NCBI GenBank assembly: GCA_040880995.1
Contig: JBBEEB010000104.1
Location: 128 to 64,127 of the forward strand
DNA from: Halofilum sp. (in: g-proteobacteria)
GTDB lineage: Bacteria > Pseudomonadota > Gammaproteobacteria > XJ16 > Halofilaceae
Length of the DNA: 64,000 nt
Direction: 5' to 3'
Positions 6,165 through 50,688 of the stretch are shown piece by piece (within the stretch, counting starts at the first letter, position 1; each line of letters opens with the position of its first letter). The notes under the pieces were generated by a model. It ran no database searches. It was given only the letters and a program-made list of their open reading frames with translations, and had not been told where the DNA came from. A program made the translations under genes and the position numbers.

Positions 6165-6578
6165 ATGCTGCAACTGACGCGCGATATCACGATCGCCGAA
6201 GACGAGGTCGAGCTCACGGCCATTGGTGCCAGTGGCCCGGGCGGCCAGCACGTAAACAAGGCGTCCACGGCGGTGCACTTGCGCTTCGACGTCGCGAGCT
6301 CGTCGTTGCCGGAGCGGTACAAGCGCCGGTTGCTCGCCATGCACGATCACCGCATCACGCGCGACGGAGTGGTGGTGATCAAGGCGCAGGAATATCGGAG
6401 TCGCGAGAAGAACGAGCAGAGCGCGCTCGAGCGGCTGGGGGAGTTGATCGAGGCGGCTGGGACCGAGCGCAAGCCGCGCCGTCCCACGCGGCCGAGTAAG
6501 CGTGCACGCGGCCGGCGCACGGATCGGAAGACGCAGCGGGGTCGTACAAAGTCGCTGCGCAAGCCGCCGCAGGACTGA
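6165..6578 (+). CDS. arfB: Alternative ribosome rescue peptidyl-tRNA hydrolase ArfB (YaeJ)
   Basis: SGPGGQHVNK (GGQ motif), AQEYRSRE.N and a basic C-terminal tail PRRPTRPSKR. Confidence 0.93.
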   Translation: MLQLTRDITIAEDEVELTAIGASGPGGQHVNKASTAVHLRFDVASSSLPERYKRRLLAMHDHRITRDGVVVIKAQEYRSREKNEQSALERLGELIEAAGTERKPRRPTRPSKRARGRRTDRKTQRGRTKSLRKPPQD

Positions 6579-6588
6579 GCGGCGCGCT

Positions 6589-7101
6589 TTAGCCGGCGTT
6601 GCGCTCCAGCACCTGCGGCAGCCACACCAGATCGGTCACGCCGACATCCTTGCCGAATTGACTCAGCAGCGTCGTGAGCTGACCGCGGTGGTGAGTCTGG
6701 TGGTTGAAGAAGTGCGTGACCGCCAGCCACATCTCGTACTTACGCTCACCCGGACGGACGGCGCTGGTATAGCGCAGCGTGGCGTTCAGATCGTCCTCGA
6801 TCAGCGATTCGGCCCATTCGGCGATGCGCACATCGAGCGCTTCGCGCGCGGCGCGCAGTTCTTGGAAGTCGTGGTGTAGCTCCTGACCGAGGCTCTCGAA
6901 GTGGAAGGGCTCGCCGGTGAAGCGGCCGAGCCATATCTGATCGGTCAGTACCAGGTGGTTGAGCGTGCCGTGGATCGACTTGAAGAAGGCGCCGCAATCG
7001 CGACGGCGCTGCTCGTCGGTGAGCTCGGCGCAGACGCCGTATAGGCGCTCGTTCATCCAGCGGTTGTAGGCGGCTAGGTCGCGAGCTTGTTCCGGGCGCA
7101 T
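6589..7101 (-). CDS. DinB family protein
   Basis: FFKSIHGTLNH...D.IW and HFFNHQTHHRGQ His motifs. Confidence 0.88.
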   Translation of the reverse strand: MRPEQARDLAAYNRWMNERLYGVCAELTDEQRRRDCGAFFKSIHGTLNHLVLTDQIWLGRFTGEPFHFESLGQELHHDFQELRAAREALDVRIAEWAESLIEDDLNATLRYTSAVRPGERKYEMWLAVTHFFNHQTHHRGQLTTLLSQFGKDVGVTDLVWLPQVLERNAG

Positions 7102-7130
7102 GTTGTACTCCTTTGAAGTATCGCGTGGTT

Positions 7131-7163
7131 CCCCGGATTCCGCTGGCGCTCCATCCGGGCTAC
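7131..7163 (-). repeat. GTAG-family REP palindrome (GTAGCCCGGATGGAGCG...GCGGAATCCGGGG)
   Basis: Plus strand CCCCGGATTCCGCTGGCGCTCCATCCGGGCTAC is an imperfect palindrome ending in CTAC. It is extragenic, between DUF488 and DinB. Confidence 0.7.
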
Positions 7164-7184
7164 GGCTTCCGAAACCGACATTCT

Positions 7185-7655
7185 CTATAACTCCAACCCG
7201 AGCTGACCGTTATCCGGGTCGGGGATTAAGTGGCGGGCCGCCAACCCCGTACGGGCTTCCAGCGCTTTGGCCACTTCGCGCCGGTGGCATTCACGCACGT
7301 CGCGCTCATAGCAGAGCAGCGCTATGTGCCCCGCCAGCTCGCCGGGAAGTTGGTCGAGCAATCCCTGCTGGCGTTGGCCGGCCAGGTGCTCGGCGTAGCC
7401 CACGAAGAACTCGTCCGCTGTGCATTGCCCCTGCTTGATCCGATCGCGCAGCGGCTTGGGCGCGCCCAGTGCTCCTTCATGGCGGTAATCGATCCCGACT
7501 TCGGCGAGGGCAGCGGCGAGCGCCTTTTTGGCGAATGCGGGTCGGCGGGAGATCGGCGCCTCGCGCACGTCCAGTACCACACCCGCGCGGCGCAGCGTGG
7601 CCAGGAAGGCTTCCAGGCTAGCGCCCTCGTAGCCGATCGTGCACAAGCCGTTCAT
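7185..7655 (-). CDS. DUF488 domain protein
   Basis: LCTIGYEG, DVRE.PISR, ALLCYERD..ECHRR. Start trimmed to MNGLCTIG. Confidence 0.85.
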   Translation of the reverse strand: MNGLCTIGYEGASLEAFLATLRRAGVVLDVREAPISRRPAFAKKALAAALAEVGIDYRHEGALGAPKPLRDRIKQGQCTADEFFVGYAEHLAGQRQQGLLDQLPGELAGHIALLCYERDVRECHRREVAKALEARTGLAARHLIPDPDNGQLGLEL

Positions 7656-30869: not shown

Positions 30870-31601
30870 TCATGTGCGCCGGCCGCCACTGGCCTCCGCT
30901 ACCTCAGCGGCCGCCTGGATCGGGCGCTCGTCGGCCAGGCGTTCGCTGTAGCGGTCGACGAGGTAATCGCCGAGATCGCGCGTGAGCAGGGTGAACTTGA
31001 CCAGTTCCTCCATGACATCGACCACGCGGTTGTACAACGAGGACGGCTTCATGCGACCGTTCTCTTCGAACTCGTCATACGCCTTGGGCACGGACGACTG
31101 GTTGGGGACGGTCAGCATGCGCATCCAGCGGCCGAGGATGCGCATGTTGTTGACGGCATTGAACGACTGCGAGCCGGCATTGACCTGCATCAACGCGAGC
31201 GTCCGCCCCTGGGTTGGACGCACGCCGCCGTAGGACAAGGGCAGCCAGTCGATCTGCGCCTTCATGAGCCCGGTCATGTTGCCGTGGCGCTCCGGGCTCG
31301 ACCAGACCTGGCCCTCCGACCACTCGGACAGCTGGCGCAGCTCGACCACCTTGGGGTGGTCAGGCGGTGCGTCGTCGGGCAACGGCAGCCCCGAGGGGTT
31401 GAAGAAGCGCGCCTCGGCACCGAACGCCTCCAGCAAGCGAGCCGCTTCCTCGGCCAGCAGACGGCTGTAGGAGCGCTCCCGCAGCGAGCCGTAGAGCAAC
31501 AGGATGCGCGGCCGATGGGTCGACGGCTGCGCCGCGCGCAGGCGCTCGACCGTCGGGTGGTCGAGAAAGGCGCGCTCAATGTTGGGCAGATCACTCGTCA
31601 C
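30870..31601 (-). CDS. arsH: Arsenical resistance flavoprotein ArsH
   Basis: [34 protein letters not shown] and [10 protein letters not shown]. Confidence 0.95.
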
Positions 31602-31650
31602 GACATTTTCCTCATAGATGTATCGGGCACCCCCCCTTCCCGAATCCGCT

Positions 31651-31672
31651 GTAGGTCGGGCTTTGGCCCGAT
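31651..31672 (+). repeat. GTAG-family REP
   Basis: GTAG-GTCGGGC-TTTG-GCCCGAT. Confidence 0.75.
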
Positions 31673-31704
31673 CGAACCCCGCTGCACGATTCGGTCAGGC
31701 TGAA

Positions 31705-31865
31705 GAGACTGTGTAAGAAATCCGGCGCCTACTGCGGAAGCGCCACAGCGGCCGCTTTTGACGATCCTTCTCGTCGCATAAGACCCACTATGTTCCTCGA
31801 ACGATCGTCAAAATCGCCTCGCCGGGCCACTTCCTCGCTACGGCGCGGATTTCTCACACAGTCTC
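31705..31865. mobile_element. 161-bp non-autonomous MITE inserted in a REP loop
   Basis: 20-bp TIRs GAGACTGTGT(A/G)AGAAATCCG at 31705-31724 and 31846-31865; TGAA direct repeat at 31701-31704 and 31866-31869; internal 11-bp inverted repeat at 31756-31766 / 31803-31813. Confidence 0.82.
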
Positions 31866-31976
31866 TGAAGCCTGACCTACTGCGTGCGTGCAGCGCGCGA
31901 TCGACGTCCCGGCGAGTTGTGAATGCCGCACCAGTGCCGCTACCCGAAGCACCCTTCAAGCCCTACACGGCCCCGG

Positions 31977-32288
31977 CTACGACTGAGCGCCGCTGGCCTC
32001 GACGAACAAACGGCGCCAACGCGCCAATCCCTCGGCGCGGATCGTGAGGTCGGTCTCCGCCCTCCCCTCGGCGATGGCCGGATCGATGTAGACCTCAAGG
32101 CCATCGATCTCACGTTGCAGCCAGCGCCCCGGCTCGTCCGGGCGGCGCGCTTCGGCCACGGGCAGCATGGCGGTGCCGCCGCAACAGCCATGACGCGGCG
32201 ACGCGCGCAACGTCACTGCGCCGCCGTGGCGCCGGAGCCAGTCGCGTGCCCCGGCGTCCACGTGGATTCGCGGCCCGTGCGGCGTCAC
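31977..32288 (-). CDS. Small HesB-like CC-motif protein (resembles the CC/Se-motif family) in the ars operon
   Basis: GTG start overlaps the acr3 stop (GTGA); RHGCCGGT motif; DGLEVYID pattern typical of HesB/IscA-like folds. Confidence 0.7.
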   Translation of the reverse strand: MTPHGPRIHVDAGARDWLRRHGGAVTLRASPRHGCCGGTAMLPVAEARRPDEPGRWLQREIDGLEVYIDPAIAEGRAETDLTIRAEGLARWRRLFVEASGAQS

Positions 32289-50480: not shown

Positions 50481-50630
50481 GTAGATCGGGCTTTTAGCCC
50501 GGTCGGAGACGGACAGCGCGGCGCCGGTTCGGTCGGGCTGAAGAGACTGTGTAAGAAATCCGGCGCCTACTGCGGAAGCGCCACAGCGGCGCCGCTTCTA
50601 TTGCTGACGTAGGTCGGGCTTCAGCCCGAC
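50481..50630. repeat. REP cluster with a truncated MITE left end
   Basis: REP at 50481-50503; half-REP GGTCGGGC+TGAA, then 48 bp (50543-50590) identical to 31705-31752; intact REP GTAGGTCGGGCTTCAGCCCGAC at 50609-50630. Confidence 0.8.
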
Positions 50631-50688
50631 AGCCCAACGCAGGCAATACGGCGAACCGCGGGTATCAGCGCCGGTAATGGGCCACCGT

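Follow-up and report, generated by a model that had tools for sequence, protein, structure and literature searches.

A 161-bp MITE in the duplicated loop of a Halofilum REP hairpin, probably moved in trans by an IS1182-family transposase

A 161-bp MITE of Halofilum sp. lies inside the loop of a GTAG-type REP, whose loop is present in duplicate on either side of the insert, and it is likely that the element is moved in trans by an IS1182-family DDE transposase that reads the stem-loop. The window, meaning the whole stretch of 64,000 nucleotides analysed here, corresponds to C104:128-64127 of a 2.5-Mb, 151-contig, 66%-GC MAG that is 94% complete, and Table 1 collects the features of interest. 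Inspection of window positions 31693-31880 reveals the layout GGTCAGGC-TGAA-(161-bp element)-TGAA-GCCTGACC-TAC, in which the 20-nt TIRs of the element match at 19 of 20 positions; an earlier note on this DNA had described these half-REPs, repeats and TIRs, and its description is borne out to the base. Deletion in silico of the element with one TGAA yields GTAGGTCAGGCTTCAGCCTGACC on the minus strand, which is the perfect REP that the note had expected and which differs at 3 positions from the intact REP at 50609, called near-identical there. The partner REP at 31651, the internal 11-bp inverted repeat and the lack of an ORF were also described correctly, with no ORF confined to the 161-bp element, or conserved between copies or subfamilies, on either strand. 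When the window was shuffled, a TIR match was obtained in 0 of 100 shuffles.

Table 1. Positions in the window of the element, the interrupted REP and related repeats
Feature	Position	Strand	Remark
Partner REP of the REPIN, intact, GTAGGTCGGGCTTTGGCCCGAT	31651-31672	+	also present at the orthologous locus L064
Interrupted REP, 3' stem half (GGTCAGGC on the + strand)	31693-31700	-	pairs with 31870-31877
Target-site duplication copy 1, TGAA (TTCA on the GTAG strand)	31701-31704	.	a single TTCA at the orthologous empty site
161-bp MITE; G-end faces the GTAG tag	31705-31865	-	
Left TIR ('A-end'), GAGACTGTGTAAGAAATCCG	31705-31724		
Internal 11-bp inverted repeat of the element, TTTTGACGATC / GATCGTCAAAA	31756-31766 / 31803-31813		
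Right TIR ('G-end'), reverse complement GAGACTGTGTGAGAAATCCG	31846-31865		
Target-site duplication copy 2, TGAA	31866-31869	.	
Interrupted REP, 5' stem half (31870-31877) and GTAG tag (31878-31880), GCCTGACC-TAC on the + strand	31870-31880	-	
Second MITE copy, incomplete: half-REP GGTCGGGC (50531-50538), TGAA (50539-50542), first 55 nt of the A-end (50543-50597)	50531-50597	+	
Intact REP of the same family, GTAGGTCGGGCTTCAGCCCGACA	50609-50631	+	3 positions differ from the reconstructed window REP

The insertion is situated in an ars operon on the minus strand that comprises arsC, acr3, a small CC-motif gene, the REPIN with the element, and arsH. The REPIN lies between the acr3 and CC-motif genes and arsH, placing the insert directly upstream of arsH, and a sigma-70 promoter scan of 31550-32050 found none. 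Folded as single-stranded DNA, the REP stem and the element form one long hairpin of -54.7 kcal/mol (z -8.6). The second copy in the window has lost the remaining element and the other REP half, and 11 unrelated nt follow it before the intact REP at 50609.

The element entered a pre-existing REP and duplicated its 4-bp loop (TTCA on the GTAG strand), and the decisive evidence comes from locus L064, a Halofilum-like Logan contig (SRR34348017) whose ArsH, 86% identical, is the nearest homologue and whose gene order is that of the window, acr3 lying upstream of arsH and a GGDEF gene downstream of it. The region upstream of this arsH reads GTAGGTCAGGC-TTCA-GCCTGATC-GAATCGTGCAGCTGGTTCG-GTTGGGC-TGAA-GCCCGACCTAC and contains no element. 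Its REPIN has the same rare A/T stem variant, the same spacer and one TTCA; in an 87-nt alignment to the window site from which the element and one TTCA were removed, the stretch that begins at the GTAG tag and reaches into the spacer agrees at 36 of 37 positions. That is to say, the shared REPIN with its rare variant, the single TTCA and the missing element identify L064 as an orthologous empty site, which is the type of site in relatives that the earlier note proposed to seek. The small CC-motif gene (window 31977-32288; Pfam CC_Se_fam in L065 and L066) is found in the window, L065 and L066 and is absent from L064. No REPIN is present at the ArsH loci L065 and L066, and an exact ArsH look-up returned one contig only, which is broken inside the same filled site. 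For the site on contig C141, the intergenic region between pheS and pheT was compared in relatives whose PheS is 95%, 93% or 85% identical; in none of them was it homologous, so that no second orthologous empty site was obtained.

The earlier note had regarded its reading as lost if the TGAA and half-REP flanks proved to be the element's own ends, and three features of the copies indicate that they are not. The 4-mers are direct repeats (TGAA/TGAA) amid inverted surroundings, where an extended TIR would give TGAA/TTCA. Stem variants on the two sides of the insert compensate one another, as AGGC/GCCT does in the window and GGAC/GTCC on C118, and the same variants occur as intact REPs elsewhere in the genome. 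Divergence among copies amounts to ~10% in the 8-nt half-stems versus 1.6% in the element interior, a difference of about six times, which marks the REP halves as target rather than element. Intact counterparts of reconstructed sites are found within the assembly: the window site equals the intact copy at C118:11610-11635 (26/26), the filled site of C118 equals C21:6906-6935 (30/30) and the C57 site equals one on C38 (35/35). REPIN-length matches of reconstructed sites are 93-95% identical over 57-60 nt.

The target belongs to the GTAG-type REPs and REPINs, characterized by a GTAG tag, a GC-rich 7-8-bp stem, a short loop, high copy number and inverted pairs. Loops of intact tagged REPs read TTCA in 51-54 cases and TTTA in 18-19. 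The assembly holds at least 16 copies of the element that are 96-99% identical, 10 of them full, with many ends at contig edges; full copies carry 1-4 differences from the consensus, and the family has recently expanded in a burst within this Halofilum genome. Its TIRs, small non-coding body, dispersed near-identical copies and duplication relative to an empty site are those of a MITE. Insertion is all but confined to REP loops, and the orientation with respect to the GTAG tag is always the same. The genome-wide TIR search suggested by the earlier note gave this result, with 29 of 31 element ends abutting the half-REP GTCGGGC (at most 1 mismatch) through the loop 4-mer; the two other ends comprise one contig edge and one odd copy on C130. 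Of 13 G-ends (GAGACTGTGTGAGAAATCCGCGCCG), 12 stand beside the GTAG-tagged half, as against 0 of 17 A-ends. Some 75-100 intact tagged REPs compare with at least 16 occupied ones in 2.5 Mb, and therefore about 1 REP in 6 is filled.

Several individual sites are recorded here as observations in their own right. A RAYT gene is present on contig C20 at ~6491-7223 (Pfam Y1_Tnp, 31 bits; cut-off 23) with REPs on both sides. The REP upstream of it (GTAGGTCGGAC-TTCA) holds a MITE copy at C20:7185, which means that the element has struck a REP beside the enzyme thought to spread REPs. The copies at C47:11139-11299 and C104:76498-76658 are identical, as are their flanks, and probably reflect assembly redundancy rather than duplication. 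The copy at C130:63429-63636 has a 7-nt deletion in its A-end TIR, and at its G-end, 54 nt short of the end of the contig, the neighbouring sequence is AT-richer and not a REP (TAAGAGGGTGTTTACAAAAG...); another insertion or a chimeric join could account for this copy.

Beyond this assembly, the element family was found in all 12 other genomes of the same genus; across 28 other families of the class a single genome had it, in the form of a divergent subfamily. About 100 copies are listed among the relatives, and copies with the same anatomy are present on JGI metagenome contigs. Relatives of the element in other Halofilum species occupy GTGGGTCCGGC-TTCA REPs, and two other genomes of the genus (L002 and L003) have filled 5-nt loops, TTATA and TTACA. 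Other targets are the GAA loops of GCGAAGC-type mini-hairpins, filled on C150 and L007. These two copies (C150:8949-9108 and L007:1024-1184) belong to a second subfamily, with 3-nt direct repeats in a GAA/TTC mini-hairpin loop, and their mini-hairpins lie inside a different, longer REP class (GTAGCCYGGATGGAGCGAAGCG...). One copy, on L004, sits at a non-hairpin site and has a TGAA repeat. At L002:1690-1728, in the Halofilum-genus genome CAJXKK01, a MITE-bearing REPIN has GTCGGGC-TGTAA-GAGCCTTTGTAAAAA-GCCCGACCTAC as its partner REP, the loop of which contains 15 nt resembling a TIR tip without a second loop copy and looks like a remnant of deletion or excision.

The mobiliser is probably an IS1182-family DDE enzyme from the clade of full-length elements that end in GAGMCTGTGTGAAAA..CCG, judging by a scan of the TIR pattern against GTDB species genomes and metagenomes. 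Full-length IS1182-family IS in other phyla or on unassigned contigs terminate in the same tip as the TIR (GAGMCTGTGTRA.AA..CCG). In Verrucomicrobiae MAGs, multiple matches coincide exactly with the tips of an IS of 1673 bp (L015:2403-4075), whose 494-aa transposase contains DUF772, DDE_Tnp_1 and DDE_Tnp_1_6 and reaches 420.7 bits against NF033551, 'IS1182 family' (cut-off 270). This IS has 4-bp GCGC repeats at a recurrent target. In metagenomes the same tip is borne by 1.5-1.7-kb IS1182-type elements on at least 6 unrelated contigs, with 44-55% aa identity to the Verrucomicrobial enzyme. Full-length IS1182-type IS lie inside the loops of imperfect hairpins on L034 and L037, and one on L053 has an AGCG/AGCG repeat. 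Contig L049 (68% GC, not Halofilum) opens within an IS of this kind, whose tip adjoins GTAGGTCGGCA-TTCA and whose initial codons, ...GVNRSQSSLFPESL, show homology to the transposase N-terminus. Subterminal similarity between the MITE and the IS1182-type IS ends is not significant after nt 25 (z no higher than 2.5). The ~25 matching nt are the search pattern itself, so the link to IS1182 rests on the matches being exact IS tips, and the family assignment rests on the tip, the 4-bp repeat and the target behaviour.

Searches of the Halofilum MAG itself returned no IS1182 transposase, as tblastn gave no hit below E 0.4 and a 5-sequence HMM run over six-frame ORFs had a best E of 0.72. No TIR pairs 0.4-4 kb apart, and hence no autonomous copy, were found in the assembly, whose 94% completeness leaves room for one that was missed, and all Halofilum matches of the TIR scan are MITEs with no parent element among them. 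The IS1182 partner is consequently a putative one in Halofilum. Full-length elements sharing the TIR tip, of the kind that the earlier note proposed to look for, are IS1182-type and lie in other phyla or on unassigned contigs, not in this genome. Its reading of a non-autonomous element moved in trans is supported, and the enzyme, which it left unnamed, is narrowed to a probable IS1182-family DDE transposase.

Three matters touching the scan are set down separately. On L015, L025, L026, L029, L030, L040 and others (Verrucomicrobiae, peat and bog metagenomes) the IS always adjoins CCTAACACC-GCGC, with a GCGC repeat, and on L015 two inverted IS copies flank 0.9 kb, with flanks that suggest an inversion. 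An Alphaproteobacteria MAG has a 1054-bp segment (L027:3024-4077) bounded by the same TIR tip, with no transposase and a 271-aa ORF that by eye resembles a SAM-dependent methyltransferase; this segment is possibly a passenger-carrying derivative. A TIR match in Pseudomonas moraviensis is inside a membrane-protein gene and was treated as chance.

As the main remaining alternative, a transposase of the IS5 family (IS5 or IS427 group), and not of IS1182, would mobilise the element, which we consider unlikely. Consistent with it are element ends that start GAG, the 4-bp repeats, and sister subfamilies that sit at CTAG with CTAG repeats, a classic IS5-type target. IS5 and IS1182 transposases are moreover related, and the Verrucomicrobial enzyme also matches IS5 models below cut-off. 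Against this stands the identity of the enzymes themselves, in that every match to the TIR pattern with a transposase in view is IS1182-type and none is IS5-type.

With an IS1182-type transposase as the preferred mobiliser, the enzyme, supplied in trans, would recognise an extruded stem-loop rather than a fixed sequence. The element ends would be joined at the two stem-loop junctions, the repaired gap would be the whole loop, and the asymmetry of the REP (its GTAG tag and asymmetric loop) would set the orientation. A gap equal to the whole loop would explain why, in the clean cases, direct repeats of 3, 4 and 5 nt are found in loops of 3, 4 and 5 nt, a reading that is partly ambiguous because the outer G...C of the TIR equals the stem-closing C/G, such that each repeat could be up to 2 nt longer. 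Repeat length that tracks loop length is unusual for a DDE enzyme.

The repeats are not always equal. Flanking 4-mers differ in 4 of 9 full copies, each time by one base (TTCA/TTCG twice and TTCA/TTTA twice) and always at loop positions 3-4, at a rate greater than expected from the 1.6% divergence of the element. We read the TTCA/TTTA mismatches as hypermutation or conversion of the loop, at a site where the REP family itself is polymorphic. TTCG was seen in no intact REP loop, and the two TTCA/TTCG pairs are therefore not explained in this way. The alternative of a duplication of only 3 bp, the element having one more terminal A, was considered and rejected: 2 of the 4 mismatched repeats would persist, and TTCG loops, which are absent from intact REPs, would be required.

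Unequal 4-mers in 4 of 9 young copies also bear on a single-strand HUH/Y1 mechanism (IS200/IS605-like or RAYT), in which the apparent duplication would be one target plus one element-borne 3' tetranucleotide, inserted 3' of the loop tetranucleotide. The strict orientation, the hairpin target, the RAYT in the genome and the form of the element, a long hairpin whose mismatches favour G.U on one strand, agree with such a mechanism. Even so, we regard it as very unlikely: the 20-nt TIRs are of the same type as the DDE IS1182 tips and Y1 elements lack such TIRs, neither 4-mer is constant (TTCA, TTTA or TTCG on one side, TTCA or TTTA on the other), and in other hairpins the repeat follows the loop length (3, 4 or 5 nt). 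Least credible of all is the proposal that half-REPs and 4-mers belong to the repeat unit and that a filled REP or REPIN is copied whole by the genome's RAYT; the fixed orientation of the REP halves in every copy and the REP-flanked RAYT gene, with one such REP filled, would fit it, but it is excluded by the insert-free orthologous REPIN of L064 and is further opposed by the direct rather than inverted 4-mers, the compensatory stem variants that also exist as intact REPs, the greater divergence of the half-REP flanks (~10% versus 1.6%), and the copies found in hairpins of other classes and, in one case, away from a hairpin.

The element is one member of a wider group of 161-nt hairpins. Sister subfamilies in this genome that share its interior include one with TIR tip GAGACTGTGAATATATTCG, in REP loops or mini-hairpins, and one with TIR tip GAGCCTGTCCGAGAAA, at CTAG with CTAG repeats. 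A further subfamily with TIR CAGCCTGTCGGACTTAGG is ~170 bp long and CTAG-bounded (C43:2047-2224, C73, C79 and C96), and only the conserved interior is common to it and the window element. When 18 members, drawn from four subfamilies and at least 10 genomes, were aligned with window 31705-31865 as row 1, the alignment spanned 161 columns with essentially no gaps. Its consensus hairpin has 51 pairs with 93% of cells paired, versus 33-39% in slid controls. Pairs changed on both sides, which is to say compensatory, number 34 of 51, a count reached by 0 of 500 shuffles. The non-palindromic centre (CCACTATGCTCCTCGAACGATC) is nearly invariant, while TIR tips and target (REP loop versus CTAG) have changed. 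A coding or peptide role for this conserved centre was rejected, there being no conserved ORF on either strand.

Mismatches on the + strand comprise 34 A.C cells at 21 positions versus 11 G.U cells at 10 positions, which indicates that wobble pairs are tolerated on the strand reading GTAG first, although the non-independence of the cells makes this bias no more than suggestive. The pairing reflects either selection on the hairpin, in the form of single-stranded DNA or RNA, or homogenisation of its arms by repair. A further step would be to see the 161-nt hairpin as a selected structural module, and not just decayed transposon DNA, whose transposase reads DNA shape. We hold this view to be doubtful; a direct repeat equal to the loop (3, 4 or 5 nt) is what would be expected if strand transfer occurred at the stem-loop junctions of an extruded cruciform.

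One of the closest known systems is IS1272/TnSha1, IS1182-family elements of staphylococci that target hairpins or inverted repeats with little primary-sequence specificity and whose IS1272 insertions delete or replace part of the hairpin and leave no duplication (PMC4923244, PMC5678879). Palindrome targeting by other IS1182 members is attributed to Siguier et al. 2015, as cited in the same two papers (PMC4923244, PMC5678879). The MITE resembles these elements in that its TIR tip matches IS1182-type IS tips, those of a hairpin-seeking DDE family. It differs in that IS1272 is autonomous, whereas the MITE is a 161-bp non-coding element that keeps both stem halves, duplicates the loop and has a fixed orientation.

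The earlier note had drawn its analogy from IS1397, an IS3-family element that, like ISKpn1, generates a short 3-4-bp duplication. Both are autonomous 1.4-kb elements with another transposase family and other ends. As cited in PMC3184786 and PMC1525189, IS1397 and ISKpn1 of Enterobacteriaceae insert at the centre of REP (palindromic unit) hairpins. The analogy holds for the behaviour, insertion in a REP loop, and fails for the family, as the MITE ends in GAG...CTC rather than TG...CA and has no OrfAB. REPs have long been known as IS targets, and the REP-targeting elements described there are full-length IS (PMC1525189, PMC3184786).

The same holds for ISPpu9, ISPpu10, ISPa11, ISPsy8, ISRm19/22 and IS621, for which REPs are preferred landing sites and the joined flanks rebuild a REP (PMC1525189, PMC12288879), all of them full-length IS and none a MITE. 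Several REP-targeting IS, including ISPpu9 (PMC12288879) and IS621, belong to the IS110 family (PMC11208160). The MITE departs from the IS110/IS1111 pattern in having terminal TIRs and a 4-bp duplication, and no Rfam match was found in 31500-32050 at E up to 1. The IS110 family, which uses a DEDD recombinase with a bridge RNA, lacks terminal inverted repeats, or has subterminal ones only, and lacks classical duplications. IS200/IS605-type PATE and RAYT units, with subterminal hairpins but neither TIRs nor a duplication, are set apart from the MITE by its 20-nt TIRs and by flanks far more diverged than the element. The 161-nt hairpin recalls ERIC-type palindromic repeats, which are likewise long imperfect hairpins of fixed length with cross-species conservation and compensatory changes; ERIC differs in having no REP-loop specificity and in sequences unrelated to the MITE. 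No MITE of REP loops was found in the literature searched. Hairpin-targeted transposition is already known; to it this family adds a very clean new example, made more useful by its empty site, its orientation lock, a repeat that tracks loop length and covariation in the 161-nt core.

The insert adds a very stable 190-nt hairpin within the ars operon just upstream of arsH, and arsH expression may be altered as a result. For the genome at large, the family represents a second layer of genomic parasitism, in which a miniature transposon uses the REP hairpins of its host, themselves RAYT-dependent repeats, as safe landing pads. The filled loops (3, 4 or 5 nt), the variant stems and the constant orientation together constitute a natural data set with which to ask whether IS1182-type transposases read DNA structure or sequence, a question left open by the published IS1272 work, and insertion that is specific for both hairpin and orientation is relevant to targeted-integration tools.
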